Positions 17,986 through 59,943 of a stretch of 64,000 nucleotides of DNA are shown here, one piece after another; positions within the stretch are counted from its first letter, which is position 1; each line of letters starts with the position of its first letter. Origin of the DNA: Limnochordia bacterium (GTDB taxonomy: Bacteria > Bacillota > Limnochordia > DTU080). The notes under the pieces were generated by a model, which saw only the letters and a list, made by a program, of their open reading frames with translations, was not told where the DNA came from and made no database searches. Location: positions 256,001 through 320,000 of the forward strand of contig JBMNJG010000011.1 of assembly GCA_050951545.1 (NCBI GenBank), given 5' to 3'. The position numbers were made by a program, and so were the translations under genes.

Positions 17986-18583
17986 GCAAAGGTCACAAGA
18001 GGTTCTCCAGAGGTTCTTGCTGCAAGAGGGGATTGAGGTTCCCTGGCATATGCTGTGGGTAGACCCTATTCGCCAGCGACTCAGTGCCTTATGTTATGTA
18101 CAGCGCGGCGATCAAGTCCTGATGCTGCAAAGACGCAAACAGCCTTTCTCCGGGTATTGGACCGCACCGGGCGGCAAGCTCGAACCCGGAGAAGATCCGA
18201 GACAAGCCATCAGGCGCGAGATACAAGAAGAAACAGGTCTTCACCTGCGCTCTGCTAATCTGCAGCTCGTGGTGTCCGAGAGATCGCCGGACCCCCTGTA
18301 CAACTGGTTGCTCTTCGTCTTTCGCAGCGAAGATGCCGCAGGACAGTTGACTGAGTGTCAGGAGGGCTTGCTGCGCTGGGTACCCCTAACGGAGCTAGCG
18401 ACACTGAAGAGAGTGACTATCGACAGCCTCTTACTTCCGTTTGTGTACGACGATCGAAAACGCTACATCATTCATGTCGTCTTTGAACATCCCCCTGAGG
18501 GCGAGATTGTGCGGACAGAGGCTTTTTCGAGACAGTCAGCGCATGCGAGTTCGGGGGGCCGCCGACATGCCCGCACAGAGTAA
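17969..18583 (+). CDS. NUDIX hydrolase (8-oxo-dGTPase-like); start uncertain
   Basis: Nudix box GGKLEPGEDPRQAIRREIQEETGL. Confidence 0.88.
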   Translation: MLPGDKQRSQEVLQRFLLQEGIEVPWHMLWVDPIRQRLSALCYVQRGDQVLMLQRRKQPFSGYWTAPGGKLEPGEDPRQAIRREIQEETGLHLRSANLQLVVSERSPDPLYNWLLFVFRSEDAAGQLTECQEGLLRWVPLTELATLKRVTIDSLLLPFVYDDRKRYIIHVVFEHPPEGEIVRTEAFSRQSAHASSGGRRHARTE

Positions 18584-18591
18584 CATGATTC
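18557..18591 (+). repeat. Leader motif, copy A (before the comFA RBS)
   Basis: GGCCGCCGACATGCCCGCACAGAGTAACATGATTC; 32/35 identical to 59909-59943. Confidence 0.85.
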
Positions 18592-18609
18592 GCTAGGGGA
18601 GAGGGAAGC

Positions 18610-20421
18610 GTGATTCGCTACTGCGTGTGGGTGTCGACAGGATCTTTGGAACCTGCACCCACGCTTCCTCCTCTTCATTCCTATAATGCTCACTGGGGGA
18701 TCTCCTGTGACCCCCATGTGGAGAGAGCCCTGCTCTCACGTGGCAGCACACTACGATTCGTGACGCCTTTTTTGCCACTGTGGTTGGCCGAGATTGCTTC
18801 CCGATACGCAAGTGGTGCAGGCGGATGCGGGGGCGGCTGGCGAGTATGGTTGGCGAGAAGAAGAGTCCGCCGGCTACTAGCGGTCTGGGGCCGCCAAAGT
18901 GCGTGGCGCCAGTTGGATCTTCTTTCCTATGCGCATGTTCCAGCTCAGGGGGAGCTCCTCGTTCCGGAGAGAGCTACGGCCATTCTTGGCATTCTGGCAA
19001 ATCGGCAGCTCCTTGAGCATGAACTGGTCGCCGCTTGGCGAGCGCGGGCCCTGGGCCCCCATGCTCCTTCCGCCTCTGATGTGCAGCAGCTGCTGCTAGC
19101 AGGTCTCGTGGTGCGCAAGGCAGCTGTTGGCCTAGGCTCTTTTGGTCGCTTTGAGTGTCGGCGCTGCGGGAGCCACGAATCTGTTGCCATAGTGCAGTGC
19201 GCGGTGTGTGGGGGCGAATGTCCAGAGTGCCGCGACTGCCTTTCGCTAGGGGTGTCGCGCGGCTGTTCTGCACTGTTGACGACTGCCTCCGATGTGTTGG
19301 CATGGACCGATGCGAGAGCTCGGTCCACGAGTTGCTCTGCTCCGACCTACCATCTGCCTTTTGCACTGTCGCCAGCGCAGGAGAGTGCGGCGGATGAGAT
19401 CCAACAGGCGATGCATGAGGGGGTACGCCATGTGTTGGTGTGGGCGGCTTGCGGGGCTGGCAAGACGGAAGTAGTCTTTGAAGCTATCGCGGAAGCATTG
19501 GCCCGCCGAGGTCGCGTGCTTATAGCGACCCCACGGCGGGATGTGGCTGCAGAGCTCTGCGAGCGACTTCAGTCTGCCTTTGGTGCTGAGGTGGTCGCAG
19601 GTCTCTATGGTGGAGTGACGCAGAAGTATCCTGATGCACCTGTGCTGGTAGCCACCACCCACCAAGCCGTACGTTTCGCAGGACAGTTTCAGCTTCTGGT
19701 ATTTGATGAGTGCGATGCTTTTCCCTACACTGACAGCCCGTTGCTACAGAGAGCAATCGCTCGTCTGGCGGCGCGGGCTGGCTGTTTTGTGCAGATGACG
19801 GCGACCCCAACGCAGCGACAGATGCGTCAAGCTCGCTTGCCTGGCTCCCGCCTGATCCATATCCCGGCTCGCTACCATGGGTATCCTCTACCAGTACCCG
19901 TTGTCTGCGAGGACTCACGGCTTAAGCAGTGGCCTGGGCGGCAGGTACCAGCATGTCTGGGCGAAGCACTTGTGCAGACAGAGGAAGATGGGGCGCAACT
20001 TCTGATTTTCGTGCCCCGCCGAGCGTTGGTAGAGCCCGTAGTCAGTGCGATAAAGAGTGTCGGTTATCGGCGAGTCATGGGTGTACACTCGCGCTCACAT
20101 AGGCGTGATGCGGTGCGAGAGGCCTTAGCAGCGGGTGCCCTGGATGTAGCCGTCTCTACAACAGTCTTCGAACGAGGACTGACTTTTCCAACAGCCAATG
20201 TCGCTGTTCTTTTCGCTGATGCCGAAGAGGTGTTCGATGCTGCAACCTTGATACAGATGGCTGGCAGGGTTGGCCGCACCGCCCAAAGACCCATGGGCCG
20301 GGTCTGGTTTCTGTGCACCAGACCAAGCCGACAGATGCGAGATGCCTGCCAGGCGATTGAGGAGCTAAACATTATGGCTGAGGAGCGGGGACTGCTGACA
20401 GCTTGCCACTCATGCCCCTAG
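18610..20421 (+). CDS. comFA: ComFA competence DExD-box helicase with Zn-finger N-terminal region
   Basis: CxxC clusters, VWAACGAGKTE, ATPRRDV, FDECDAFPY, MTATP, QMAGRVGR. Confidence 0.88.
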   Translation: MIRYCVWVSTGSLEPAPTLPPLHSYNAHWGISCDPHVERALLSRGSTLRFVTPFLPLWLAEIASRYASGAGGCGGGWRVWLARRRVRRLLAVWGRQSAWRQLDLLSYAHVPAQGELLVPERATAILGILANRQLLEHELVAAWRARALGPHAPSASDVQQLLLAGLVVRKAAVGLGSFGRFECRRCGSHESVAIVQCAVCGGECPECRDCLSLGVSRGCSALLTTASDVLAWTDARARSTSCSAPTYHLPFALSPAQESAADEIQQAMHEGVRHVLVWAACGAGKTEVVFEAIAEALARRGRVLIATPRRDVAAELCERLQSAFGAEVVAGLYGGVTQKYPDAPVLVATTHQAVRFAGQFQLLVFDECDAFPYTDSPLLQRAIARLAARAGCFVQMTATPTQRQMRQARLPGSRLIHIPARYHGYPLPVPVVCEDSRLKQWPGRQVPACLGEALVQTEEDGAQLLIFVPRRALVEPVVSAIKSVGYRRVMGVHSRSHRRDAVREALAAGALDVAVSTTVFERGLTFPTANVAVLFADAEEVFDAATLIQMAGRVGRTAQRPMGRVWFLCTRPSRQMRDACQAIEELNIMAEERGLLTACHSCP

Positions 20422-20474
20422 GGGCTTATGATGAAAAGGCACGGGCCATGCTGTAGGGTAACGGAGGTCTTCCT

Positions 20475-21263
20475 ATGCGTCTGTTGCGGACCCTCGCCAT
20501 GGAGGCAACGTATCTGCTCTTCGCAACCCCTAGGCCCTGCTATCTGTGTGGTTGTGCGCTACCGCCCCCCATCTTGCCGTGGGCGTCTCTCGTGGGTGAT
20601 GTACGTGCACTGTTTTGCGAGAAGTGCCATGCCTGCATTCCCTGGGTTGTGCCGCCCCGGTGTGACGAATGTGGCCGGCCGGGGTCACAGGCCGGGCTAT
20701 GCCGACTGTGTCGCAGGAGGGCGAGACGGCTGAAGGGGCGGAGCCTAGCTGTCTACACCGGTGTCATCAAGCGACTACTGGCAGATCTCAAGTTCAGAGG
20801 AGTGCGGGAGGTGGCCGAGCCGTTGGGCTATCTCACTGGCGTCGCTGCCTCTGAAGTGGTGAAGGATTGGCGCTCACTAGTCATTGTGCCAATACCACTT
20901 CACAGCGAGCGCCTCATTGAGCGAGGGTTCAATCAGGCAGAGCTGTTGGCTGCAGGTGTAGCTCGCGTGCTTGGCCGTCCTATGTGGACGGGCGCTCTTG
21001 AGCGTAGTAGGGCCACGGCGACACAGAGTACGCTCTCCGCTACAGAACGTTGGAGAAATATGGAAGGGGCTTTTGTGGCTCCCCTACCGGGGCAGGTGGC
21101 ACACAGACGCTTTCTTCTGATTGATGATGTGTATACTACTGGAGCTACGATCTCTGCAGCGGCTGCGGCGTTGATGCGGGTAGGTGCCGCAGAGGTACGC
21201 TTTGCCACAGTCGCGGTTGCAGTAGCTATGACGGATGTGCTAGACTGGGCGGGTGATCAATAA
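20475..21263 (+). CDS. comFC: ComFC / ComF amidophosphoribosyltransferase-like protein
   Basis: Double Zn ribbon, [23 protein letters not shown]. Confidence 0.92.
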
Positions 21264-21357
21264 GAGGAAAACGGCGAATAGTACCGAAGTGGATCCGGCA
21301 GTGACGGATCGCTTCAGCCCCATCGGCTGCTGTAGTCTCGCCCAAGGAGGGACCTAC

Positions 21358-21576
21358 ATGCTCGTGCTCACGCGCAAGCGCGATGAGAGCATCTTCATCG
21401 GTGACAATATCAAAATCACGGTTGTTGACGTTCGCGGCGATCAAGTAAAAATTGGCATAGATGCTCCTAGACACGTGCCCGTGCATCGGGAAGAGGTGTA
21501 TAAGGAGATTCAGGAAGAAACACGACAGGCTGGCTCAGGGGCGCTCGATCCAAAGCAAAGCCTTGCCCGACACTAG
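21358..21576 (+). CDS. csrA: Carbon storage regulator CsrA
   Basis: [33 protein letters not shown]; SD AAGGAGG. Confidence 0.96.
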
Positions 21577-21605
21577 CTTGGCATCGAATCAAGAGTTCTC
21601 ATGGT

Positions 21606-21641
21606 AACGGCTTGTGGTCGCCGCGGCAACCACAAGCCGTT
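21606..21641 (+). terminator. Terminator after csrA
   Basis: AACGGCTTGTGGT / ACCACAAGCCGTT 13-bp stem. Confidence 0.75.
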
Positions 21642-21691
21642 TGACTTCTCTGGTAAAGGTCGCTGTTGCATCCTGTTTCCTCTCGTTTGTC

Positions 21692-21720
21692 TTGCGGTGG
21701 CGTAACTAGGGAAGTATAAT
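21692..21720 (+). promoter_or_regulatory. sigmaA promoter for the raiA-motif RNA
   Basis: TTGCGG-N17-TATAAT; predicted start near 21727 coincides with the 5' strand of the closing stem. Confidence 0.75.
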
Positions 21721-21726
21721 GGATTC

Positions 21727-21928
21727 GCCGTCACTCGTCCAGGTCTGTGGTTGAAAGTCGAGGCCAGCCGTAGGCGAAACGACCCACGTAAGGCAACCTA
21801 AAAAACGCGTGTTGCCGAGCATGGTGCGGCTTAGAGTAAGACCTGTTGTTTGCGTCGTGCGTACCACGAGTACCGGTAGCGACAGGCGGATGTGGGGGCA
21901 AAGACCAGGTCAGCTGTACGGTGACGGC
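21727..21928 (+). ncRNA. raiA motif RNA
   Basis: Conserved blocks GTGGTTGAAAGTCGA.GCCAG.CG.AGGC.AAACGA.CCACGTAAG, GAGCATGGTGCGGCTTAG, GTGGGG.CAAAGACCAGGTCA; closing stem GCCGTCAC/GTGACGGC; canonical comFC-to-hpf context. Confidence 0.9.
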
Positions 21929-21977
21929 ATGTTGCTGGAGGTCTGCATGGGGCCAGCGGAAGCGAGGGATCGGACCA

Positions 21978-22277
21978 GTGCCATTTGTCGACAAAACACT
22001 GAAATGCAAGGATTGCGACCAGGAATTTGTTTTTACTGCCGGTGAGCAGGCTTTTTACGAGGAAAAAGGGTTTCAGAATGAGCCGACGCGTTGTCGCGAC
22101 TGTCGCGGCGCGCGCAAACGTGAACGTAATACCGGGAGCTTTCGCGGCAACGGCCAGACAAGACAGCTTTACGCAGTGATTTGCGCAGAGTGCGGTGCGG
22201 AGACCCAGGTGCCTTTCCAGCCTAGGGGCGACCGGCCCGTCTACTGCCGCGACTGTTTTCAGGCGAGGAACAGCTAG
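21978..22277 (+). CDS. Zinc-ribbon protein with CxxC-x17-CxxC domain
   Basis: DKTLKCKDC..FVFTAGEQAFY..PTRCRDCR; CAECG..VPFQP..PVYCRDCF. Confidence 0.92.
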   Translation: MPFVDKTLKCKDCDQEFVFTAGEQAFYEEKGFQNEPTRCRDCRGARKRERNTGSFRGNGQTRQLYAVICAECGAETQVPFQPRGDRPVYCRDCFQARNS

Positions 22278-22308
22278 ATCATCGGGGATCCAAGGCGCGG
22301 TAAGGGCG

Positions 22309-22343
22309 GCCCGCTTTGCACAAAAGCGGGCTATTCTTCTTTC
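22309..22343 (+). terminator. Terminator after the zinc-ribbon gene
   Basis: GCCCGCTTT/AAAGCGGGC stem plus T-rich tail. Confidence 0.65.
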
Positions 22344-22439
22344 TGGCTAGGCGGTTTTTCCAGGAGTTATGTTGCGCGTCCAGAAATATACTAGTGCCGC
22401 CGTGCGTTGTGCGAGCGCCAAGCGAAGGGGATGACAGCT

Positions 22440-22997
22440 ATGGCAGAGACAGGAACCATGCGCATCGCAGTCACGGGAAAGAATCTTGAGATCACACAAG
22501 CACTGCGTGAGTACTCTGAGAAGAAGGTGCGCAAACTCATTAAGTTCTTTCGCGGCGGTGAGGTGGGCGCTGAGATGCTGCTTAGTGTACAGCGCGAGGC
22601 GCACATTGCGGAACTCACGGTGCATCTGAACGGGCTTCTGTTGCGTGCAGAGAGTCGCACTTTCGACATGTATGCCAGTATCGACGAGGCTGTGGATCGC
22701 GTGGAACAGCAGTTGCGCAAGTATAAGACGCGCATTCAGCGACGGCTGCAAGAGAGTCCGCGCAAGGATCTCACACCTGATATCCATGTGGCAGGGTCCG
22801 AGGAAAGCGAAGAGGTTCCGCCGGTGGTGGTGCGAACCAAACGGTTTGCGATGAAGCCGATGGACGTCGAAGAGGCGATTATGCAGATGGAGTTGCTCGG
22901 GCACGACTTCTTTGTCTTTACCCACAGCTCCAATGAGAGCATTAATGTGGTGTACCGGCGGCGCGACGGCAACTACGGCTTGATTGAGCCTCAGTAA
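22440..22997 (+). CDS. hpf: Long ribosome hibernation promoting factor (HPF/RaiA)
   Basis: GKNLEITQALREY, DMYASIDEA, PMDVEEAIMQMELLGHDFFVF, VYRRRDGNYGLIEP. Confidence 0.96.
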   Translation: MAETGTMRIAVTGKNLEITQALREYSEKKVRKLIKFFRGGEVGAEMLLSVQREAHIAELTVHLNGLLLRAESRTFDMYASIDEAVDRVEQQLRKYKTRIQRRLQESPRKDLTPDIHVAGSEESEEVPPVVVRTKRFAMKPMDVEEAIMQMELLGHDFFVFTHSSNESINVVYRRRDGNYGLIEPQ

Positions 22998-23023
22998 GTC
23001 GTGATTGATTGACGGTTCTTCGT

Positions 23024-23050
23024 GACCCGGCCCTGCAGGGCCGGGTCTTC
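23024..23050. terminator. Terminator between convergent genes
   Basis: GACCCGGCCC-TGCA-GGGCCGGGTC. Confidence 0.7.
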
Positions 23051-23080
23051 ACTATGTAGTTGGCAGCAGATTATGAGTTA

Positions 23081-23590
23081 CTATTGCGGTTTGCTTTCAG
23101 GAGGGACGCCATTCGGATCATCGGTAAGAAAGAAAGCGTCGAAACGAGCTTTGATCTCGCCGTGAGAGGCCTTCAACTGGTGTGTGCCCTTCTTCAGATC
23201 ATAGGATGCGATTTTCACCCACTCGTAGACGCCTGTTGTGGAGGGCCATTTTCTGCTCCATGGTGCATTACCCACGGTGACATAGGCTGCATCGGAATTA
23301 CCATCTGGACCGAAAAGACGCGCCCACAACTGGTAGGTATCATCCGCAGGAACTGATACTTCGATCTCGGCCAGTGCCACAGGAGACCGGGTATCTTGGC
23401 CTACTGGCACATGGATGTATCTGCCGCCAAACGCTTCTCCGTCGGCAGCTACTACCATATCTGAGGCTAGGGTCATGTCTTCGGCTTCGACAAGTACGCT
23501 GAATTCGGAGGCGAGAGCTGCGCTTTGGAGCATTGCCGCTATCAACAGCGTAAGACAGAGTACTACTGAGCTTTGCATGTTCCGAACCAT
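23081..23590 (-). CDS. Small exported beta-sandwich, CBM-like protein
   Basis: Signal peptide ending ALA-S; VEAED, YQLWAR, YEWVK, LKKGTHQL, FDAFFLT. Confidence 0.6.
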   Translation of the reverse strand: MVRNMQSSVVLCLTLLIAAMLQSAALASEFSVLVEAEDMTLASDMVVAADGEAFGGRYIHVPVGQDTRSPVALAEIEVSVPADDTYQLWARLFGPDGNSDAAYVTVGNAPWSRKWPSTTGVYEWVKIASYDLKKGTHQLKASHGEIKARFDAFFLTDDPNGVPPESKPQ

Positions 23591-23918
23591 AACAGAGTGC
23601 CCCCTTGTGTAAGGTAATTGATAAGATAAACCCATCGCAGGATCGCGATATCAGTAAGACTATATGACGTTGAAGCGCATTTACCTTTTTTTCCCTCGCC
23701 CGACGATGCCGGATGGCGCCTTTGGCAGCTTCTGGCCGTGGCGTCTCCTTGTTGGGCGGATGCTGCCATGCTATACTATTGGCGACAAATGAAGAGTACG
23801 CGCACAGGCGCCCGACCGGAAGCAGGCTGGGTACAGTAGGTGTCCCGGTGGCTTATCTATTGTGCAGCATTGGCGAATGCTGGTGATCGCCTAGAGACGA
23901 TCTGCAAAGGGGTAGTAT

Positions 23919-26612
23919 ATGCTCGGGCTCATACGCAGAATGTTCGACACGAACGCCAAAGAGGTACGGAGACTGCAGGAGCGGACTCTGGCCATTAATG
24001 CTATAGAGTCAGAAACAAAGGCACTGACTGATTCCGATCTACGGGCAAGGAAAGATGAGTTCCGCTCGCGCTTGGATAATGGCGCTGATCTGGACGATCT
24101 CTTGCCCGAAGCTTTCGCTGTGGTGAGGGAGGCAGCCTGGCGTGCCATCGGGCAGCGTCACTATGATGTGCAGCTGATGGGCGGCATTGTGTTGCATGAG
24201 GGCCGCATTGCGGAGATGAAGACTGGCGAAGGCAAAACCCTGGTGGCGACCTTGCCGGTCTATCTCAATGCTCTTGTTGGTCGTGGAGTGCATGTGATCA
24301 CAGTTAACGATTACCTCGCTCGTCGAGACGCGGAATGGATGGGACGCATCTACCGCTCCCTGGGCCTATCCGTAGGCTGTATTGTGCATGGACTTGACTT
24401 CGCTATGCGTCGACAGGCCTATAGCTGCGACGTAACCTATGGCACAAACAATGAGTTTGGTTTTGACTACTTGCGTGACAACATGGTCATGCATCCTGAG
24501 CAAAGAGTACAGAGACAGCTGCACTACGCGATTGTGGACGAGGTAGACAACATCCTGATCGACGAAGCGCGTACGCCACTTATCATTTCGGGTCAGGCCG
24601 AGGAATCTACGGATCATTACTATCGCTTCGCGCAGCTCGTCCCTCGTCTGAAGCGCGATGTGGACTACACGGTCGAAGAGAAGACGCGTCAGGTCGCGAT
24701 CAGCGAAGAGGGTGTGGAGAAACTCGAGCAGTGGCTGGGAGTGAACATGTTTGACGAGGCTCACTTTGAGCTCACGCACTATATGCAACAGGCATTGCGG
24801 GCACACACTCTCTATCAGAAAGACCGAGACTACGTCGTCAAAGACGGGAAAGTGACTATTGTCGATGAGTTCACCGGGCGTCTAATGCTGGGGCGCCGCT
24901 ATAGCGATGGTCTGCATCAGGCCATCGAAGCCAAAGAGGGCGTGCGTATCGAACATGAGTCGCAGACGCTAGCTTCTATCACGTTCCAGAACTACTTCCG
25001 CATGTATGAGAAACTCGCCGGCATGACTGGTACGGCGGAGACGGAAGAGGCCGAGTTTCGCAAGATCTATGGCATGGATGTGGTGGTTATTCCCACCAAC
25101 ATGCCGCTGATTCGCCAAGACCACGCTGATCTAGTCTATAAGACGGAGATGGCCAAGTTCGAAGCGATCGTGGATGAGATTGCTCAGTGGCACCAAGAGG
25201 GTAGGCCAGTCTTGGTCGGTACTATCTCCATTGAGAAATCAGAGAAGCTGAGTGACATGCTCTCTCGGCGAGGCATCAAGCATCAAGTTCTCAATGCCAA
25301 GCATCACGAGAAAGAGGCAGAGATCATCGCTCAGGCGGGGCGGCTCGGAGCAGTCACCATTGCCACGAATATGGCGGGACGGGGCACTGACATTCTGCTG
25401 GGGGGCAACCCAGAATTCTTAGCCAAGCAGCGTTTGCGACAAGCGGGCATCGCGCCCGAGATTGAGGCCCAGATAGGCGAGCCTACAGCGGGTGACGAGC
25501 CGGAGGTACTGGCGGCGCGGGATATGTTCCAGAAGCTCCTCGAAGAGTGCAAAGGTGAGACCGATCTCGAGAAAGAGCAAGTGATCCAGCGAGGTGGCTT
25601 GCACATCATTGGCTCAGAACGCCATGAGAGTCGCCGCATTGACAACCAGCTTCGGGGGCGCTCAGGCCGACAGGGCGACCCAGGATCCTCGCGCTTTTAC
25701 GTCTCACTAGAAGACGACTTGATGCGCCTGTTCGGGTCAGAACGGGTCTCCTCTATCATGGACCGTCTAGGATGGGAAGACGATCAGCCCATTGAGCATG
25801 GCCAGATCACTCGGACCATTGAGAACGCTCAGCGTAAGGTGGAAGCTTACCACTTCGATATCCGCGAGCAAGTGCTAAAGTATGACGACGTACTGAACAA
25901 GCAGCGCGAAGTGATCTACGAGATGCGCCGTCACGTGCTCAACGGTGAAGACATGCGCGAGCGAATTCAAGGCATGATGCATCAAGCGATAGGCACTATG
26001 GTTGCGGAAACGTGCAGCGAGAAGGTGCATCATGAGGAATGGGACCGCGATGGACTGCTCGAGCGTCTGAATGATCTAGTCGCTGGAGATCCAGGAATCT
26101 CGGTGGATGATCTGCGTATATCCGACCGAGACGGCATCGAGGAGATCCTGCTCGAGAAGGCCGAAGCTGCCTACGCCGCTCGGCAAACGACGATAGGCGC
26201 TGAGCAATTGCGTGAGCTAGAGCGCATGATCCTCCTACATGTGGTCGACACCAAGTGGATGGATCATCTGCGAAACATGGAAGACTTGCGACAGGGCATC
26301 GGTTTGCGGGCTTACGCGCAGCAAGATCCGCTGCTCGAGTACCAGTTTGAGAGCTTCCAAATGTTTCAGGCGATGATGCATGCGGTACAAGACGACGTGT
26401 TACGGTACCTGTTTCGTGTACAGGTGGCGGGCCGAGATGCCCAGCGCGAGCAGGAAGAGCGTCAGAAGGCTGCGCAAAGACTGCTCTCGGTTCAGACCAA
26501 CCGCGATGGTGACGATGCCGCACGGCCTAGGCGGGTAGGCGCCAAGGTGGGCCGTAACGATCCGTGTCCGTGTGGTTCCGGCAAGAAGTATAAGCGATGC
26601 TGTGGAGCTTAG
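23919..26612 (+). CDS. secA: Preprotein translocase subunit SecA
   Basis: [40 protein letters not shown]-terminal SEC-C motif. Confidence 0.99.
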
Positions 26613-26660
26613 TAGATGCTACACTTTGTGACGGATCTTGTGGAAAGGGTGACGCAAGCG

Positions 26661-27786: not shown

Positions 27787-27808
27787 TGAATGAGGGGCGC
27801 TCAAGGCC

Positions 27809-32553: not shown

Positions 32554-32569
32554 CGGCCTGTGATCAGGG

Positions 32570-33619: not shown

Positions 33620-33727
33620 GTTTTGCTCCCCCTTGAGAAACCTTCTACATTGCATCATCGACATGAGCGCCTCATATGGGCGTGGCCTGTGGCGGGCTGC
33701 GGGGCACTCATGCTCTTGATCTGGAGC

Positions 33728-34447
33728 CTAGAGAGCACCTTGTACCACGCCTGACAGTATATCAACCACACCAGCCACCATGGGGTACTCCGATACGTAG
33801 TCTACGATGGCCCGCACTGCGGGAGTGCAGTTGGCCGGAGCAGCTGCCTGACCAGCGGCCTCGAGTACCGCAAGGTCATTATCGGCGTCTCCTATTGAGG
33901 TGATCTCGTCGATAGGTACGTTCTCGATCTCAGCCCACAGGGCCAAGCCCGCGTCTTTGGTTACCCCGTGAGGCACAACCTCGACTGAGCGGCCGGAGTT
34001 GAACAGCTCTATGGGCAGCCCCCGCAGTGCTTTGGCGACAGCGGAGACTAGGTCTGGTAGGTCTTCCTTATCGGGTGGGTTGACGCTGATAAGCACCTCT
34101 TTCCCAAACTCCACGACGACATCCGTGCCCTCTACGAGTTCGTGCAGTTCGGTGACGATCTCGGGCCGTTTGCGCATGAATTCCTGGGGAACGTTCGGAT
34201 GCAGGATAAGGTCCTTGGTGAGAGGGTGCATGAGCAGCGCTCCGTTCTCACAGATGCAGTAGGCCGCGACAAGCAACTGGCGGGCCAAAGCTTCTTGGAA
34301 GGCCGGAGGCCGACCAGAGCAGAGAGCGACCCGAACTTGGCCATCGCGGTTGAATGCGGCAACTTTCTCCAGATTGGTGAAATCCCACATCGCGCCTCGT
34401 GGCGGAATGAGACAGCCGTCTATATCGCAGATCACGTGTCGTACCAT
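33728..34447 (-). CDS. HAD superfamily IIB hydrolase
   Basis: DIDGCL, CSGR, ENGA, IGDADND. Confidence 0.88.
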   Translation of the reverse strand: MVRHVICDIDGCLIPPRGAMWDFTNLEKVAAFNRDGQVRVALCSGRPPAFQEALARQLLVAAYCICENGALLMHPLTKDLILHPNVPQEFMRKRPEIVTELHELVEGTDVVVEFGKEVLISVNPPDKEDLPDLVSAVAKALRGLPIELFNSGRSVEVVPHGVTKDAGLALWAEIENVPIDEITSIGDADNDLAVLEAAGQAAAPANCTPAVRAIVDYVSEYPMVAGVVDILSGVVQGAL

Positions 34448-43317: not shown

Positions 43318-43331
43318 CTGGGTGATCCATA

Positions 43332-45293: not shown

Positions 45294-45322
45294 TTGACAA
45301 TGATGACCATGCCAGGGATAAT
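45294..45322 (+). promoter_or_regulatory. sigmaA promoter for the DUF2089 operon
   Basis: TTGACA-N17-GATAAT. Confidence 0.8.
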
Positions 45323-45364
45323 GATGCTGCATGGATCGATCGATCAGTCATGCGGTGGGAGTAG

Positions 45365-45389
45365 CATGCCCGCACCGCACAACACGGTT
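45365..45389 (+). repeat. Leader motif, copy B (before the DUF2089 RBS)
   Basis: CATGCCCGCACCGCACAACACGGTT; 22/25 ungapped identity to 59918-59942. Confidence 0.75.
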
Positions 45390-45408
45390 TTTCTGGGAGG
45401 TAGGCGCG

Positions 45409-45813
45409 ATGCGCCAGCGGCAAGCACCAGGTAGATGCCCCGTCTGCGGAAGACCAATGCATGTCACCCGACTGGCTTGCGACTCTTGTGGCAGCGCCTT
45501 GGAAGGCACGTTCTCCGTGTGCCGCTTCTGCCAGCTCTCTCCCGAACAGCAGGGGTTTGTGGAGGCCTTCTTGCTCAGCCGAGGCAACATTCGTGAGATG
45601 GAGCGCGTATTGGGTGTCTCCTACCCCACGGTGCGCAGTCGCCTGGACGGAGTGATTGAGGCATTGGGGCATGAGGCGAGCCAGGACCGCGATGCTGAGG
45701 CGGAAGAGCAGAAGAGACGGCAGGTACTCGAGGCCTTGGACAAAGGCGAGTTATCGCCGCAGGAGGCTATCAAGCAGTTGAGGGAGACGACGGGGACTGA
45801 TGGAAGTGGGTAG
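45409..45813 (+). CDS. DUF2089 Zn-ribbon/HTH protein
   Basis: CPVCG..CDSC, GNIREMERVLGVSYPTVRSRL, C-terminal SHOCT-like helix. Confidence 0.9.
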   Translation: MRQRQAPGRCPVCGRPMHVTRLACDSCGSALEGTFSVCRFCQLSPEQQGFVEAFLLSRGNIREMERVLGVSYPTVRSRLDGVIEALGHEASQDRDAEAEEQKRRQVLEALDKGELSPQEAIKQLRETTGTDGSG

Positions 45814-45846
45814 TCGCTTAGCACTGGTGAAAGGGGTTGGCCAGGT

Positions 45847-46191: not shown

Positions 46192-46259
46192 TGTGCTGTG
46201 CCAGTCACAGATCTCGGCGGGTGAGGGTCCTCTGATGGCACGGGGACCCTCAACTGCTA

Positions 46260-46736: not shown

Positions 46737-46765
46737 GGATGTATCTTTGGAGGAGGTAGGCAGCG

Positions 46766-47919: not shown

Positions 47920-47929
47920 CCGTATGCGG

Positions 47930-49966: not shown

Positions 49967-49993
49967 GCCCTTCTGCCCGTGCAGATAAGGCAT

Positions 49994-50037
49994 GAGAGGC
50001 GACAGAGCACCTGTTGGAGGGTGCTCTGTCGCCTCTC
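49994..50037 (+). terminator. 18-bp hairpin after barrel gene 1
   Basis: GAGAGGCGACAGAGCACC / GGTGCTCTGTCGCCTCTC. Confidence 0.7.
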
Positions 50038-50579
50038 TGGCAGTCGGCGCCGGAAAGGCGGACTGCGGCGTTCTCTTCAGTACGGGCATTTTTACCCACG
50101 GTCTTTTCCAGTTGCGGAGAAGGATTCCCCTTGATAGACGGTGAATATGAGCTTCACCAACCTAGTAAGAGAGGTATCCTGCGCTATTACAGAGAAAATG
50201 TCCCGCGGTTTGGGAAGGTAATGGCGAGGACAGGAGTAATATTACTAGGGCTACGGCCGTGCATGGTGCATAGCTAGTAGATAAGGAACCAATCACACAA
50301 CGGCATACGCTCGGTAGGATCTACGTCGGAGGAAGGAGGTGTCACCCACAGTTAGACGTCGATCCGCTAAACACCGGGTTATGTACGGAAGGCATGGGGA
50401 AAAGGCTCTGTTTATCGTATTCCGATCGGGCGAAGGTAACAAAGGAGACTTCTCCTGTACGGATACACTAGCAGCAGAGTCGCTAGAACACAGGCCTTCC
50501 GAGTTTAGAGAAGAACTGTTGGGTATCGATGGTGTTCGTTATAGAATCACGAACGCAAGAAAGACAGGAGGAGTGTCAG

Positions 50580-51992: not shown

Positions 51993-52037
51993 GTCAAGCG
52001 ATATCTGGTATAGCACTTCGCTATACGAGGTAGATGT

Positions 52038-52071
52038 GGAGAAGAGTCCGGCTGTAGCCGGGCTCTTTTCC
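52038..52071 (+). terminator. Terminator after barrel gene 2
   Basis: GAAGAGTCCGGCT-GT-AGCCGGGCTCTTTT. Confidence 0.7.
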
Positions 52072-52149
52072 GCTTACTGATGCCTATACCCCTACCCCTG
52101 CAGGAGAGTGCTCTTCGGCGGCGAAGGTTAGAGTGACTGACGGGGAGAG

Positions 52150-53721: not shown

Positions 53722-53917
53722 ACCGTACGCATATGGCAGGAGCCTAGGCAGTGTTGGCGAATACTTCACAGAAAGGTGTGGGTAGGTCTTATCAGCCCAC
53801 GGCGAGCTACCCGCGGGCTACCCGTAGCCGCCTGGTAGTAGTGCCCCGGTAGGGCTCATATCCGGGGGCACCAGCTATGAGTCCGGCCCTCAGCGGCCGC
53901 AAAAAGGAGGCCACACA

Positions 53918-55024
53918 GTGGCACAGGTGATTCTGCAGCATGTCACTAAGCGTTTCGGAAACGTAGTAGCGGTTAACGATGCGACCCTCGAGGTTCGCGA
54001 CAAGGAGTTTATGGTACTGGTAGGGCCGTCCGGGTGTGGAAAGTCGACGACTCTGCGAATGGTCGCGGGTTTGGAGGATCTCACCGAGGGCAATATCTAC
54101 ATCGGCGAGACGCTGGTCAATGATATCCCCCCCAAGGACCGTGACATCGCCATGGTCTTCCAGAACTACGCTCTGTACCCACACATGGACGTCTACAACA
54201 ACATGGCGTTCGGCCTTAAGCTGCGTAAGGTTCCCAAGGCCGAGATTGACCGCCGTGTCAAAGAAGGCGCCCGTATGCTGGGTATCGAGAACTTGCTTGA
54301 CCGCAAGCCCAAGGCTCTCTCAGGAGGTCAGCGGCAGCGTGTAGCGGTTGGCCGGGCTATCGTGCGTGAACCCAAGGTCTTCCTTATGGACGAGCCCCTT
54401 TCTAACCTTGACGCCAAGCTGCGCGTGCAGATGCGCGCTGAGCTTTCGAAGCTGCACGCCCGTTTGCAGACCACAGCCATCTACGTCACCCACGACCAGA
54501 CCGAAGCTATGACCATGGGCGACCGGATCTGTGTCCTCAAAGACGGAGTGATTCAGCAGGTTGGTGCGCCTCTAGAGATCTATAACCATCCTGCCAACAT
54601 GTTTGTGGCTGGTTTTATTGGCAGCCCGCCAATGAACTTCATTGAGGGAGTGCTCAAGAGAAGTGGGGAGGATTTCCTCTTTGATACGGGTGTATTCAAG
54701 CTAGCCTTAGACCCTGAAAGAAGCCGTGAGATTCGGAACCTAGCGGCCTACGTAGACAAGGACGTTGTCCTTGGTATCCGGCCTGAGGACATCAGCGATG
54801 GCAAGCTTGAGCCCGGAGCTGGCTCGAATTCGGTTGTGGCGATGGTCGATGTAACCGAGCTCATGGGTGCTGAGATTCTTGTCTATCTATCCAAAGGTGA
54901 GGCGCAGTTCATCGCTCGAGTGGATCCGCAGAGCGAGGCCACCGATGGCGAGGAGCATCCCATGACCTTTAACATGAAGAAGATTCACCTCTTCGACAAG
55001 GATACAGAGCAGACTATAAATTAG
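53918..55024 (+). CDS. msmX: Multiple-sugar ABC transporter ATPase (MsmX/MalK/UgpC)
   Basis: GPSGCGKS, LSGGQRQRVA, DEPLSNLDAKLR, C-terminal TOBE domain. Confidence 0.93.
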   Translation: MAQVILQHVTKRFGNVVAVNDATLEVRDKEFMVLVGPSGCGKSTTLRMVAGLEDLTEGNIYIGETLVNDIPPKDRDIAMVFQNYALYPHMDVYNNMAFGLKLRKVPKAEIDRRVKEGARMLGIENLLDRKPKALSGGQRQRVAVGRAIVREPKVFLMDEPLSNLDAKLRVQMRAELSKLHARLQTTAIYVTHDQTEAMTMGDRICVLKDGVIQQVGAPLEIYNHPANMFVAGFIGSPPMNFIEGVLKRSGEDFLFDTGVFKLALDPERSREIRNLAAYVDKDVVLGIRPEDISDGKLEPGAGSNSVVAMVDVTELMGAEILVYLSKGEAQFIARVDPQSEATDGEEHPMTFNMKKIHLFDKDTEQTIN

Positions 55025-55041
55025 AACGTCCGAAAGGGCTC

Positions 55042-55088
55042 TAAGTGAGAGAAAGAGCCGGGATCTTCCCGGCTCTTTCTCTCACTTA
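55042..55088. terminator. 22-bp perfect inverted repeat after msmX
   Basis: TAAGTGAGAGAAAGAGCCGGGA-TCT-TCCCGGCTCTTTCTCTCACTTA. Confidence 0.75.
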
Positions 55089-55129
55089 ACAGTGTCTGTG
55101 CTCATTTTCGACCAGGGGGATTGTCGTAG

Positions 55130-56098
55130 ATGACCGAGCAACCGATAGCGATTGGTGTCGATGTAGGTGGCACGACGTTCAGTGTAGCCTTGGTATCAGC
55201 GCAAGGCAGGATCTTGCGTTCAGACGAAGGGGAGACCTTGGCCGCCCAGGGAGCAGAGGTTGTGATAGGCCGGATCACGGAGTCTATCAGACGTCTTCTG
55301 AAGGAGGCGGCGTTAGCGCCATCGGCCTTGGCTGGTATCGGAATGGGTATCCCTGGGTTGCATGATCGGGAGCAGGGGGTGGTGATCACCTCTCCTAACC
55401 TGAAGTGGGAGGGCGTGCCCGTTCGCGATCTGGTCTGCGGTGCTATAGATACAGAGTTCTACATGGACGGCGATGTACGTGTAGCGGCTGTCGGTGAGAG
55501 GTACTTCGGCGCGGCTGCCAATTGCGAAAACTTCATCTTCATTACCTTGGGGACTGGTATTGGTTCGGGCATCTTCATTGATGGCAAGCTCTATCGAGGT
55601 CCAAACGGATATGCCGGAGAGGTAGGGCATCAGACGATTGTGGAACATGGTCCTCTGTGCGGCTGCGGCAACTATGGTTGCGTAGAGGCTCTAGCTGGTA
55701 ATAAGGGCATTGTCCGTCGTGCGCAACAGGCGCTGGAGAAAGAAGAGGCCCCTATTTTGATGCAGGAGATCGATGGCGATACTTCGCGGATTACCCCCGC
55801 AGCACTCTACCGCGCTGCTATGGCGGGATGCCACCTTTCCCATCGAGTTCTCGCGGACACCGGACGTTGTGTGGGCACCGCCATGGCCAATCTGGTGAAC
55901 GTGCTCAACCCACAGAAGATCATCGTGGGCGGAGGGGTAGCCCAAGCTGGCGAGATGATACTTGGGCCTTTGCGGGAGACAATAGATGACAGATCGATGG
56001 GTCCCAACGCAGCGGCTGTGGAGGTTCTTCCCGCCATGCTCGGCAACAGGGCCGGGGTGTTGGGTGCTGCAGCTATGGCATTGTTTGATCTCGCGTAG
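55130..56098 (+). CDS. ROK family sugar kinase (glucokinase-like)
   Basis: GVDVGGT, TLGTGIGSG, GEVGH, CGCGNYGCVE. Confidence 0.92.
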   Translation: MTEQPIAIGVDVGGTTFSVALVSAQGRILRSDEGETLAAQGAEVVIGRITESIRRLLKEAALAPSALAGIGMGIPGLHDREQGVVITSPNLKWEGVPVRDLVCGAIDTEFYMDGDVRVAAVGERYFGAAANCENFIFITLGTGIGSGIFIDGKLYRGPNGYAGEVGHQTIVEHGPLCGCGNYGCVEALAGNKGIVRRAQQALEKEEAPILMQEIDGDTSRITPAALYRAAMAGCHLSHRVLADTGRCVGTAMANLVNVLNPQKIIVGGGVAQAGEMILGPLRETIDDRSMGPNAAAVEVLPAMLGNRAGVLGAAAMALFDLA

Positions 56099-56132
56099 GT
56101 AGCGAATGGCTAGCCATCAGGGAGGGAATACG

Positions 56133-57203
56133 ATGTCTGATGCCAGAAGGCTTGATGATCAGGGTTGGCTGAGACAGATTGATCTGAGCGATATGCTTGG
56201 TCTAGTGGAGGTACTGCCCCAACAGTGTCGCGAAGCGGAGCGCATAGCTCGCAGTATGCCTTTGCCGCACTGGAACGGTGTCCAACACATTTTGGTGGTG
56301 GGGATGGGCGGTTCGGCCATTGGTGGAGACTTCGTGCGGGCATTGGCGAACGAGCAATGCAGCGTGCCCGTGAGTGTGCATCGCAGTGACACACTCCCTC
56401 GCTGGGTGGGAAGGCAATGCTTGGTTGTGGCAGCTAGCTACTCAGGCAACACGGAGGAGACTCTCGCTGCCTACGCGGAAGCCAAACGACGGCAGGCACG
56501 TCTTATGGCTATTACCACTGGTGGTGAGCTTGCAGCGCTGGCAGCGAACGATGACTGTCCCATTGTTCGAATACCCGGAGGTCTACCACCACGGGCTGCC
56601 ATCGGTTACTCGTTCGTGCCCTTGCTTGTGTTGTGTGAGCGGCTTGGCCTCTTGCCTGCCCAGGGCGAGGCCCTGGCAGAGATGTTCGAGGTCCTAGAGA
56701 AACAACGCGCCCTCTATGGACGCCAGAGCCCATCCTCACAGAATCCAGCGAAGGCTCTGGCAGCGGCACTAGTGGGCTATGCACCAGTGGTGCTCGGTTC
56801 AGAAGGCTGCAGCGGCGTGGCTGCGTATCGATGGAAGTGTCAGTTCAACGAGAACAGCAAGGCACCTGCTTTCTGGAACGTTTTCCCAGAGCTCACCCAC
56901 AATGAGACGGTGGGATGGGAAAAGGCAGATGAGGTGCTGCAACGGCTGCATGTGGTGCTGTTGCGCGACACTCGCGATAGTGAGCGCAGCACTTGTCGCA
57001 TTGACGTAGCCACACAGATCATGGGCAGGAAGGCAGAGGGGATCACGGAGTTTTGGGCTGAAGGTGATTCGTCGGTGGCACGCCTGTTTTCGTTGGTCTA
57101 TCCTGGAGACTTCGTAACCACGTATCTGGCGCTTCTCTATGGGGTCGATCCGACTCCAATTCAGGCCATTGACTTCCTAAAGGAGGAGCTCAAGAAGCGG
57201 TAG
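56133..57203 (+). CDS. Bifunctional phosphoglucose/phosphomannose isomerase
   Basis: GMGGSAIGG, SYSGNTEET, QFNENSK, PELTHNE. Confidence 0.92.
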   Translation: MSDARRLDDQGWLRQIDLSDMLGLVEVLPQQCREAERIARSMPLPHWNGVQHILVVGMGGSAIGGDFVRALANEQCSVPVSVHRSDTLPRWVGRQCLVVAASYSGNTEETLAAYAEAKRRQARLMAITTGGELAALAANDDCPIVRIPGGLPPRAAIGYSFVPLLVLCERLGLLPAQGEALAEMFEVLEKQRALYGRQSPSSQNPAKALAAALVGYAPVVLGSEGCSGVAAYRWKCQFNENSKAPAFWNVFPELTHNETVGWEKADEVLQRLHVVLLRDTRDSERSTCRIDVATQIMGRKAEGITEFWAEGDSSVARLFSLVYPGDFVTTYLALLYGVDPTPIQAIDFLKEELKKR

Positions 57204-57248
57204 GATATGTGGCTGTGTCCAGCATCCGTGGGCAGAATGCAGGCGTGA

Positions 57249-57278
57249 TTGACAGGTCTTGGTGGCCAAAGGTAGAAT
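57249..57278 (+). promoter_or_regulatory. sigmaA promoter for the toxin-antitoxin operon
   Basis: TTGACA-N18-TAGAAT. Confidence 0.7.
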
Positions 57279-57331
57279 CAGGATAGATGCTTGTCCGAAA
57301 ACGTTGAAGTACGTGAAGGGGAGACAGGCAG

Positions 57332-57601
57332 GTGGCCAGGTCCCGACACATAGTTGTATCCTTGCCCGAAACACTGCTTCAGCAGCTGAAACAAGAGATT
57401 CAAGGCGCGAAAATGGGCCGAAATGAGTTCATCTGTGAGAGCGTTGAGTATTATATGGCAGAGCGCAAAAGGCGGACTGTACGCCGCCAGCTTGTTGCGG
57501 GATACCAGGAAATGGCAGCTTTGAACCTGGAACTCGCTGGGGAAGCGGAGACCGACTCCGCCTTGGGCGAGTACGAGCAGGCGCTGTCGGAGGGAGAATA
57601 G
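57332..57601 (+). CDS. ndoAI: CopG/RHH antitoxin (EndoAI/MazE-like)
   Basis: [28 protein letters not shown]; directly before the toxin. Confidence 0.85.
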
Positions 57602-57606
57602 GTGAT

Positions 57607-57957
57607 TTGGAGGTCCGGCGGGGGGACATTGTCTACGCCAACCTTAATCCGGTGATTGGCTCTGAGCAGGGCGGCACGCGTCCAGTTCTGGTGCTTCAAA
57701 ATGACATCGGAAATCGCCATAGTCCGACCACGATTGTTGCTGCCATCACGTCTCGCATTAAGAAGGCCAAGCTGCCCACTCATGTTGAGATCTGCGCTGA
57801 CGACTATGGCCTGGAGCGTGACTCAGTGATTCTGCTCGAGCAGTTGCGCACCATCGACAAGCGACGACTCAAGGAAAAGCTGGCTCATCTTGACGAAGAA
57901 AGTATGAACCGCGTGAACGAAGGTCTGATGATTAGCCTGGGGCTGACGCAGCTGTAG
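57607..57957 (+). CDS. ndoA: MazF/PemK endoribonuclease toxin (EndoA)
   Basis: [44 protein letters not shown]. Confidence 0.95.
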
Positions 57958-57989
57958 GTCATAGGTCGCTTCTGAACGTACGAGGTAAC

Positions 57990-58017
57990 GAGACTCGCAA
58001 GTTGGCGAGTCTCTTTT
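57990..58017 (+). terminator. Terminator after the toxin gene
   Basis: GAGACTCGC-AAGTTG-GCGAGTCTC-TTTT. Confidence 0.75.
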
Positions 58018-58064
58018 GTGGATCCTCGGCAAAGTGTGCCTGGGTGTGTCAGGAGGCGTGGGAT

Positions 58065-58790
58065 ATGCGTCCTTTGGTGCTGATGTCTTGCGGAATCGAC
58101 CCCGGTGGAGCGAAATTCGAGGGCAACCTAAGCTACGTGGAAGCAGTGGAGGGAGCTGGGGGGAGTGTGATGGTGGCACCTTCGCGGCTTTGCGAGGAGA
58201 CTCTGTCCGTTCTCTGCGGGCTGGCCGATAGCATTCTCTTGCCTGGTGGCAACGATATCGATCCGGCAAACTTCGGGGAAGAGCCTCGTCTAGCCAATGG
58301 TCGTGTTGAACCGGAGGTTGATGCGGTCGACATGTATCTGGCATGCTATGCCTTGCGGCACGGCAAGCCTGTTCTCGGTATCTGTCGTGGGTGCCAAGTC
58401 CTAAACGTGGCGGCTGGGGGGAGTCTGTTTCAAGATCTGCCCACCCAGTGGGAACGCGGGCAGCTGCTGCAGCACCGACAGCAAGCGCCACGCTGGCATG
58501 CCTCCCATGAGCTGCAGGTAGTTCCTGGAAGTCTGCTGGCTGGGATACTGGGCGACACGCGGCTGCGTGTAAACAGCTTCCACCATCAAGCCATTCGGAG
58601 CTGTGGTCGGGGTATGCGGGCGGTGGCTCAGGCTTCTGATGGAGTCGTAGAGGCCATCGAAGGTGAGGGCTCAGTGTTTGCCGTGGGTGTGCAGTGGCAT
58701 CCCGAAGGCATGCTTAGCCGTCATCCCCTGCAACAGCGCCTATTTGATGCATTCATCCAGGCAGGGCTCGCAGGTAAAGCTAGCGAATGA
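58065..58790 (+). CDS. Class I glutamine amidotransferase, peptidase C26 (PuuD-like)
   Basis: LPGGNDIDP, LGICRGCQ, VNSFHHQ, VQWHPE. Confidence 0.92.
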   Translation: MRPLVLMSCGIDPGGAKFEGNLSYVEAVEGAGGSVMVAPSRLCEETLSVLCGLADSILLPGGNDIDPANFGEEPRLANGRVEPEVDAVDMYLACYALRHGKPVLGICRGCQVLNVAAGGSLFQDLPTQWERGQLLQHRQQAPRWHASHELQVVPGSLLAGILGDTRLRVNSFHHQAIRSCGRGMRAVAQASDGVVEAIEGEGSVFAVGVQWHPEGMLSRHPLQQRLFDAFIQAGLAGKASE

Positions 58791-58838
58791 GGCGACCTGT
58801 GCGGGGTGCTCTAAGATGAAGTAGGAGGTGGCACCAGA

Positions 58839-59879
58839 ATGAGCGAGGTCCTGATTCATGTGACCCGAGGATCTGTTGTCGAGAGCAGGCACGCGGCGAG
58901 CGTCGTGTTGAGTGATACCTCTGGTCATGTGAGGGCATTTGCAGGGAATCCGGATCGCATAGCCTTCTGGCGTTCTGCGGCCAAGCCGCTTCAGGCGCTG
59001 CCGCTGGTGGTGGGCGGTGGTATGGAGCACTTCGGTCTGCAGGAAGATGAACTCGCAGTAATGACTGGCTCTCACTCAGGCGACGAGGTGCATGTACAGG
59101 CCGTGCAGTCCATTCTGGCGCGCATCGGTCTGAGCGAAGAGCATCTGCGCTGTGGTGCCCATCCCCCTTTGTCAAAGGCTGCTGCGGCAGAGCTTGCGCG
59201 GGCGAGGGAGTTGCCTCGCGCGGTTCACTGCAACTGCTCTGGCAAGCATGCGGGTCTGTTGGCACTTGCCCGCCTGCATGGTTGGCCAGTGGAAGGCTAC
59301 TTGGAGCTGGAGCATCCGGTGGGACAGACCGTTATGGCGACCATTGAGGCACTGACAGGGGTGCCAGCGGCGGTGATGCCTGTGGGTATCGACGGTTGCG
59401 GCTTGCCTACTGCAGCAGTGACAATTCGCGCCATCGCCACGGCTTTTGCCCGTCTCGCTGATCCGTCATCATTGCCTCCGGACTTGGGAAAGGCTGCTCT
59501 ACGGGTTACGCAGGCTATGCGCAGGTACCCTCATATGGTGGCTGGCAGCGGTCGCTTTGACACGTCCCTGATGGCCGCTACTGCAGGGCGCTTGTTCTGC
59601 AAAGGCGGAGCCGAGGGGGTACTGGCCATAGGTCTTCCCGAGCTTGGTCTCGGCCTAGCCGTGAAAGTGGAAGATGGGGGGGCACGAGCTCTGCCACCCC
59701 TAGGTGTAGACATTCTGACCCGCCTAGGCGTCCTCACTGAAGAAGAGGCTCGGTCGCTGGCTGATCTGCATCGGCCAGTGGTACGCAACACTGCAGGTAT
59801 GGTGGTGGGAAGTATCGAGGCGATAGTGCCGGAATCATTGGCTAGCGATCTGCTTTCCCTTCGACAAGATGCAGTCTAG
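58839..59879 (+). CDS. L-asparaginase II family (Rhizobium AnsA-type)
   Basis: RSAAKPLQA, SHSG, NCSGKHAG, DGCG, KGGAEG. Confidence 0.92.
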   Translation: MSEVLIHVTRGSVVESRHAASVVLSDTSGHVRAFAGNPDRIAFWRSAAKPLQALPLVVGGGMEHFGLQEDELAVMTGSHSGDEVHVQAVQSILARIGLSEEHLRCGAHPPLSKAAAAELARARELPRAVHCNCSGKHAGLLALARLHGWPVEGYLELEHPVGQTVMATIEALTGVPAAVMPVGIDGCGLPTAAVTIRAIATAFARLADPSSLPPDLGKAALRVTQAMRRYPHMVAGSGRFDTSLMAATAGRLFCKGGAEGVLAIGLPELGLGLAVKVEDGGARALPPLGVDILTRLGVLTEEEARSLADLHRPVVRNTAGMVVGSIEAIVPESLASDLLSLRQDAV

Positions 59880-59908
59880 CGCCTGTCTTCCGGGGAGTAC
59901 GCGTGGTT

Positions 59909-59943
59909 GGCCGCCGACATGCCCGCACAGCGTAACACGGTTC
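59909..59943 (+). repeat. Leader motif, copy C (before the receiver gene RBS)
   Basis: GGCCGCCGACATGCCCGCACAGCGTAACACGGTTC followed by TCGGGGAGG. Confidence 0.85.

Follow-up and report, generated by a model that had tools for sequence, protein, structure and literature searches.

In a 64,000-nucleotide stretch of DNA from a Limnochordia bacterium (the window, C11:256001-320000; assembly of 3.64 Mb in 16 contigs, 57% G+C), a short motif recurs just upstream of three unrelated genes. Our reading, to which we give a probability of roughly 0.6, is that the motif is the core of a dispersed repeat, family F1, which was amplified in this lineage and carries a ribosome-binding site (RBS), and that the repeat is mainly selfish or neutral DNA co-opted for translation initiation and no dedicated signal. 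This reading is carried by the distribution and orientation of the copies, by the Shine–Dalgarno (SD) motif that lies within the repeat, by the extra DNA found at five of nine gene junctions compared with relatives, and by the placement of this DNA within an old SD at three of those five.

Copies A (18557-18591) and C (59909-59943) are identical at 32/35 positions, with an exact match over the first 22 nt, and copy B (45365-45389) matches the corresponding part of copy C at 22/25 without a gap, all as reported by a first-pass annotation of this DNA, whose coordinates and identities were reproduced in the sequence. When up to three mismatches were allowed, its consensus matched exactly three sites in the window, all on the + strand, where 0.01 would be expected, and none of 100 dinucleotide-preserving shuffles of the window gave three matches. 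The distance to the likely start codon, put at 16-19 nt, was measured at 18 nt for copy A (GTG 18610), 19 nt for copy B (ATG 45409) and 16 nt for copy C (GTG 59960).

A profile built from 70 seed copies and applied at a cut-off of E ≤ 0.01 revealed 88 copies of F1 in the 3.64 Mb genome. Genes were called by our own scans for open reading frames (ORFs, at least 80 aa for the downstream count), not taken from the output of a gene finder. By this measure an ORF follows 79 of the 88 copies, each of them in the sense orientation; the start codon lies at most 17 nt past the end of the profile in 70 of them and farther away in nine. The start codons are ATG (31), GTG (31) or TTG (17), the SD spacing is variable, and the right-hand SD stands at a working distance from the start codon in about nine of ten copies. 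The sense orientation and fixed start distance first noticed in three copies are thus real and genome-wide. Genome-wide copies at random positions and in random orientations, which the first-pass annotation had set against its own proposal, were found only in part: the copies are indeed many, but neither their positions nor their orientations are random.

That annotation had further proposed a regulon joining competence, envelope stress and t6A modification, and this is not supported, as the genes after the copies are functionally unrelated. Pfam matches (E ≤ 1e-5) were obtained for 68 of the 79 products following F1. The genes include carA, purD, folD, leuB, leuD, holB, recJ, rsgA, fabH, rtcB and fliN, those for transketolase, thioredoxin and its reductase, signal peptidase and spermidine synthase, MATE and ABC transporters, several GFO/IDH/MocA oxidoreductases and sugar enzymes. 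Among ORFs that end no more than 400 nt upstream of a copy, the largest shares its strand in 51 of the 88 cases and is divergent in 31, while six cases have none, so that F1 copies lie both inside probable operons and behind promoters. Scored by local GC skew, the copies are oriented 58:30 compared with 1161:525 for long ORFs; the orientation of F1 tracks genes and not the replication strand. The SD-like end is kept even where a copy does not precede a gene and stands before a promoter, a tRNA gene or a terminator. Two such copies (G000:C12:352033-352179 (-) and G000:C3:127118-127335 (-), G000 being the genome under study) lie directly upstream of TTGACA-17-TATACT promoters. One of these promoters precedes a tRNA gene, and the other a leader whose motif resembles that of a SAM-I riboswitch, a putative assignment.

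F1 copies are about 40 to 190 bp long and share one order of parts: usually a left SD-like GGAG, then an optional GC-rich inverted-repeat module of variable length, the invariant core CATGCCCGCACAGC, a tail of the type seen at window positions 59930-59945, and a right SD-like GGGAGG. Two tail subtypes exist. The information content reaches 1.4-1.8 bits over the core, is about 0.9 in the left arm, is high again over the tail and GGGGAGG, and drops to about zero at the first base after it; because it stays high through the SD and vanishes directly behind it, the SD belongs to the repeat. An SD-like motif occurs within 10 nt in 74 of 77 tails (up to two mismatches), and GGAG stands at the left edge in 18 of the 31 copies having the common left end. 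A general property of leaders was rejected, as the T-rich stretch preceding GGAG is missing from element-free genes. In some copies, B among them, nothing separates the left edge from the core; in others a stem of 13-14 bp does, and its 3′ arm reaches into the start of the motif originally described. The loops of these stems measure 4 to 96 nt and hold further modules. The longest forms, of about 190 nt, are nested palindromes, and the shorter ones resemble internal deletions of them. The motif had been described as not palindromic, and the same is true of the F1 core.

F1 has relatives within the genome. Sister family F2 differs from it in the body and has the same kind of tail and SD; it comprises 44 copies (E ≤ 0.01), 34 of them before ORFs. 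F1 and F2 stand in tandem at two loci, with one SD shared between them. Clustering of all leaders further revealed small families with the same tail, F3 and F4 among them.

The family shows lineage specificity. We searched 40 relatives, including two of the same genus (G001 and G002, about 70% DNA identity). A core-plus-tail pattern gave 48 matches in G000 and 0-2 per genome in the 40 relatives, where the matches were chance-like: they were always mismatched, their tails were unrelated, and a reversed control gave similar numbers. The exact degenerate F1 pattern was not matched in the genomes of 185,579 species, one genome per species, nor in metagenome contigs. A looser tail pattern identified one or two true copies in each same-genus genome and none in other genera.

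We compared nine gene junctions of G000 (comFA, DUF2089, carA, leuD, rsgA, receiver, folD, fabH and leuB) with those of G001 and G002. At five of them, namely comFA, the DUF2089 gene, carA, leuD and rsgA, the element is lacking in G001/G002. The junctions of DUF2089, leuD and rsgA align cleanly: the relatives have one SD, while in G000 the element is lodged within the SD, with GGGAG-like sequence on both flanks and with promoter and start codon untouched. Before the DUF2089 gene the three-genome alignment has GGGGAGGAGGT in G001 and G002 followed directly by GCGCGATG (GCGCGAGTG in G002). In G000, copy B (45362..45400, + strand; profile match C11:301364-301399) fills a gap of about 34 columns in G001 and G002 as a minimal, hairpin-less F1 segment that ends in the working SD GGGAGG (45395-45400), and the GGGAG on its left (45357..45361, + strand) corresponds to the left-hand half of an ancestral SD that the insertion has split. 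Upstream of it, and outside the repeat, lies a sigma-70-like site (45294..45322, + strand) made of TTGACA (45294-45299), a 17-nt spacer and GATAAT (45317-45322), with both hexamers kept in G001 and G002; downstream lies the DUF2089 gene (45409..45813, + strand; Pfam DUF2089 and Zn_ribbon_DUF2089). Copy B had been described as transcribed, and its place between a conserved promoter-like site and the gene agrees with this, since it should then lie in the 5′ untranslated region (UTR).

The leader of the receiver gene could not be aligned between G000 and the relatives. In G002 this leader is no diverged private repeat, as its sequence occurs only once in that genome. The lack of conserved orthologous leaders, which the first-pass annotation had named as an argument against a control element, was in part what we observed: neither comFA nor the DUF2089 gene has the element in front of it in either relative, and the receiver leader is unalignable. 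Some copies are nevertheless shared. An F1-like tail precedes an oxidoreductase gene in G001 and G002 and is absent in G000, an F2 copy in the rpoB leader is common to G000 and G001, and a copy between convergent genes is common to G000 and G002. Because of these shared copies, the family predates the split of the genus, with a burst in the G000 lineage or losses elsewhere. The rpoB leader with its F2-type tail and SD is almost identical in G000:C4:232805-232869 and G001 L097 1460-1530 (-), and the body of the element there has an extra 27 nt in G000.

The host, a Bacillota-like bacterium that looks uncultured, was seen in digester, bioreactor and landfill metagenomes. In three DNA runs the copies at L017 4176 and 14042 are spanned by contigs without change and no empty allele was observed, bearing in mind that contigs drop rare variants. 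In one RNA run, contigs fell on 19 of the 30 bins into which a 19-kb stretch was divided; none of the pieces listed bridges an element, and contigs cannot show RNA ends.

Taken as a dispersed repeat, F1 would arrive by insertion or copy-and-paste at SD-like GGAG sites, and such an arrival would set its position and orientation and regenerate a usable RBS. Landing at an SD accounts for the SD-like edges, for the F1-F2 tandems that share an SD, for the unrelated genes and for the empty sister sites. In the mRNA, the element would form the last part of the 5′ UTR or the intercistronic spacer, and the gene would presumably be translated from the SD of the element. Long forms would add a hairpin with a possible effect on mRNA stability or read-through. 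For the three clean sites, an insertion with a short GGAG duplication and template switching between GGAG microhomologies are equally good explanations.

A more specific version of this reading, which we put forward tentatively and with odds well below even, takes the SD itself as the landing site. Entry at GGAG in one orientation would bring a fresh SD at the right end, keep the gene translatable and leave a second, left SD-like motif, making the repeat a ‘portable ribosome-binding site’. Template switching between the GGAG microhomologies on either side of every copy may be all that it requires, without a transposase; alternatively, an unrecognized protein would move the repeat, for example the winged-helix ORF of a 2.5-kb multi-copy element described below. 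The leaders of about 4% of genes would have been replaced in this way, and gene conversion or selection would keep the copies homogeneous.

Several observations weigh against a neutral repeat that lands at SDs. Four F1 copies are found at the 3′ ends of genes or between convergent ones, and all four are sense to the upstream gene. The filled sites at comFA and carA have no left SD copy. At folD, fabH and leuB the G000 copy is near the family consensus, and the relatives hold a diverged or partial version of it. The core is conserved more strongly than its flanks. Core conservation, near-consensus old copies and sense 3′-end copies could reflect RNA-level selection, a trans-acting factor or gene conversion. 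F1 is also not a classical MITE (a miniature transposable element with inverted repeats), as only about 18 of the 88 copies have inverted arms and minimal copies have none. Nor did we find what might move it: the genome has no match to the Y1 transposase (PF01797), for which controls responded, and no TnpB domain, and a comparison of F1 and F2 with the ends of 12 families of long repeats brought up nothing beyond chance runs of 10-11 nt and one 21-nt match at 90%. Since the assembly is 93.9% complete, a mobilizing partner could have been missed. Finally, when flank correlation was used to look for target duplication extending past the shared GGAG, the observed value was 89 against a null of 88.4 ± 5.3 (P = 0.48); with a GGAG that hardly varies, such a test is of low power.

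Two specific sources of the repeat were rejected. Against an IS200/IS605 or RAYT origin stand the lack of Y1 and TnpB and an orientation that is independent of GC skew, and against a parent insertion sequence the non-matching ends of the 12 long-repeat families.

The strict sense orientation and the fixed distance to the SD would also be expected if the core were the recognition site of an RNA-binding protein or small RNA, acting on a post-transcriptional regulon of about 80-130 mRNAs that was spread by duplication. We consider this improbable. The contrast in information between core and left arm (1.4-1.8 vs about 0.9 bits) fits such a trans-acting factor, as do the old G000 copies that stayed near consensus while same-genus orthologous copies diverged, the F2 tail in the rpoB leader that is almost unchanged between G000 and G001 despite about 70% genome identity, and the 3′-end copies that are still sense to the upstream transcript. 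The downstream genes, however, have no function in common, F1, F2 and F3 share only the tail and not the core, the same-genus genomes lack the element at five of nine junctions, and in the rpoB leader the conservation extends over the entire leader, beyond the element. No antisense copy that could encode a complementary RNA was seen either; every copy looked at is sense to a flanking gene.

Somewhat less probable still is a structured RNA module, a hairpin with a single-stranded tail, that would serve as an mRNA stabilizer, a processing site or a cistron insulator. Long forms do fold into a stem of 13-14 bp, paired changes or G-U pairs preserve the stem in some copies (C5:198552, C7:78991, C5:229286), and 51 of the 88 copies come after a same-strand gene. 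But at least 11 of 14 pairs form in only 28 of the 88 copies, a recognizable inverted arm is present in about 18, and a hairpin is entirely missing from minimal copies such as B. A full-length copy folded no better than its shuffles (z = -0.43; 72 of 200 shuffles equalled or bettered it), and the consensus fold of five copies had an unfavourable covariation term of +3.76. When the arm of each copy was paired with its own partner or with the arms of other copies, the difference was marginal (12.2 vs 11.7 pairs, P = 0.049).

A known RNA family was rejected after two Rfam searches, in agreement with the first-pass annotation, which had not recognized the motif. At the gathering score no family in the window covers the copies and only raiA was found, and at E ≤ 5 over 2.1 kb containing the three copies there was one meaningless snoRNA match only. 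Two further candidates were rejected. Enhancement of translation by pairing with 16S rRNA showed no excess over shuffles, as the longest helix has nine pairs, a length reached by 175-198 of 200 shuffles. An upstream ORF or translational coupling was discarded because 30 candidate ORFs after the left SD fall into frames 0/1/2 as 9/8/13, run from 6 to 59 codons and have no common length or stop.

A DNA signal, whether an alternative-sigma promoter or an operator, is very improbable: it would suit the fixed distance upstream of genes and the 31 of 88 copies in divergent regions that need a promoter, but it is the start codon, rather than a promoter, to which the distance is fixed, the conserved TTGACA-17-GATAAT stands upstream of copy B, two copies lie upstream of clear sigma-70-type promoters, copy C contains no sigma-70-like site under the sigma-70 model, the only one applied, the core is not palindromic, and the tail subtypes differ exactly at the required -10 position.

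A dispersed, RBS-carrying repeat has precedents. According to a published review (PMC3184786), Neisseria REP2 is 120-150 bp long, occurs in 23-26 copies, contains promoter, RBS and ATG, and forms part of the 5′ UTR of genes that are co-regulated on host-cell contact. REP2 and the similar Borrelia plasmid IR have internal but no terminal inverted repeats, and their origin and spread are given there as unknown (PMC3184786). Compared with REP2 so described, F1 is likewise dispersed, intergenic, placed directly upstream of ORFs and equipped with an RBS, as is the Borrelia IR. It differs from REP2 in having no ATG, since similarity ends after the SD, in having no sigma-70 promoter that we could find, and in its 88 copies (with 44 more of F2) before genes of unrelated function. 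The review describes the mycobacterial interspersed repetitive units (MIRU) as 40-100 bp long, present in 40-50 copies, intercistronic, transcribed within operons and absent at homologous sites of a sister species; short direct repeats at filled sites suggest insertion, tandem arrays are formed, and small ORFs within MIRU overlap the flanking stop and start codons (PMC3184786). F1 resembles MIRU, so described, in size, in its oriented intergenic placement and in being missing from homologous sites in related species, and departs from it in having no consistent small overlapping ORF and mostly single rather than tandem copies. REP2 and MIRU are the nearest known analogues.

Pneumococcal BOX elements are portrayed in another source as modular and as once suspected of a regulatory role for their nearness to competence genes, and pneumococcal repeats as enriched between convergent genes (PMC3049150). 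In line with that account of BOX, and with MITEs, F1 is a mosaic of sub-elements with variable length and strongly paired long forms; unlike them, it abuts start codons, most copies are without terminal inverted repeats, and no insertion sequence with matching ends was found. With REP/BIME-RAYT and IS200/IS605-derived palindromes, F1 has in common GC-rich hairpins, strand-specific placement and the lack of classical terminal inverted repeats. It differs from REP/BIME in that the genome has no Y1/RAYT and no TnpB and in that its orientation is linked to genes and not to replication. REPs are mostly found at gene 3′ ends.

F1 is thus an RBS-carrying intergenic repeat that shares position and RBS with known repeats and is several times more numerous. 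In the open-access literature we found no description of F1 or of a repeat that targets the SD. Few repeats that bring an RBS onto the starts of genes are on record (REP2, Borrelia IR, MIRU). With well over 100 copies, several families and clean empty and filled sister sites, G000 makes the question of how a repeat finds the SD directly testable. For annotation, leader motifs shared between genes should not be read as regulons, and the element is an aid in locating start codons. Since translation-initiation regions are near-identical in about 130 genes, a factor touching that sequence would act genome-wide.

Two of the three window copies lie at junctions that are less clean than that of copy B. 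Copy A, including the SD-like GGGGAG (18596-18601), occupies 18541..18601 on the + strand (profile match C11:274557-274599, window 18557-18599), and about 27 nt of it have no counterpart in G001 or G002. A TAA within the copy (18581..18583, + strand) terminates the upstream ORF (17969-18583 (+)), which thus takes its C-terminal codons from copy A and its stop from the tail of the element; the G001 orthologue is about nine codons shorter and has a different C-terminus. The gene 3′ of copy A (18610..20421, + strand) encodes a ComFA-like DEAD/ResIII helicase (Pfam DEAD, ResIII, Helicase_C; protein look-alikes named ComFA). Its presumed start, GTG 18610, corresponds to GCG in G001 and CCG in G002, and the codons after it are conserved. 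The true start of comFA may therefore differ from GTG 18610, or the relatives may start elsewhere.

Copy C is a short-type F1 (59898..59952, + strand; profile match C11:315908-315952) that follows an SD-like GGGGAG at its left edge (59892..59897, + strand) and ends in the SD GGGGAGG (59946-59952). The receiver-domain gene 3′ of it (59960..60337, + strand; Pfam Response_reg) likely starts at GTG 59960, with which a TTG is aligned in G002; an in-frame ATG at 59954 is too near the SD to be the likely start. The window also holds a fourth copy, belonging to F2, on the - strand (33626..33727; BLAST and profile matches C11:289627 and C11:289683). It begins after the stop of a HAD-type hydrolase ORF (33728..34447), and its closing AAGGGGGAG stands 6 nt before ATG 33619, the start of a gene whose product has Ala_racemase_N and D-ser_dehydrat domains.

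Elsewhere in the genome, contig C14 duplicates about 10-12 kb of C11 (G000:C14:8868-8984 (-) vs G000:C11:141503-141547 (-)), and in the F1 copy on C14 the tail-plus-SD is tandemly duplicated, 72 nt apart. The C14 duplicate may be a strain variant or an assembly alternative. Six leaders in G000:C1:52091-62941 and at C4:55991 share an F1-like motif, a G+C-rich arm followed by a CGTTAG-type tail, and five of the six lie within 11 kb of the 65-kb contig C1.

The 2.5-kb multi-copy element lies at G000:C2:121887-124430 (L120) and in about 11-15 further copies, for example at C6:205126, C7:435471 and C16:2332. Its only long ORF, of 359 aa, gave weak winged-helix matches, no transposase family and no PDB relative. 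In many of 12 copies the right end has a -35-like TTGAC about 10-30 nt away, often followed by a tRNA gene or another gene. Its last 75 nt contain the tail-like ACGATTTCTGGGAG and a 12-nt module that is also present in long F1 and F3 forms. This may represent a novel type of mobile element and perhaps one connected with the repeat, for which the two shared modules are a lead only.

In the clustering of leaders, CRISPR-like arrays with a 28-29 nt repeat (G000:C16:153-157 kb, C6:154-157 kb and C5:1.7-2.0 kb) appeared as a false ‘leader family’. Within the window, the raiA RNA motif (RF03072) was identified at 21734-21922 (+), with 123 bits compared with a gathering score of 101.

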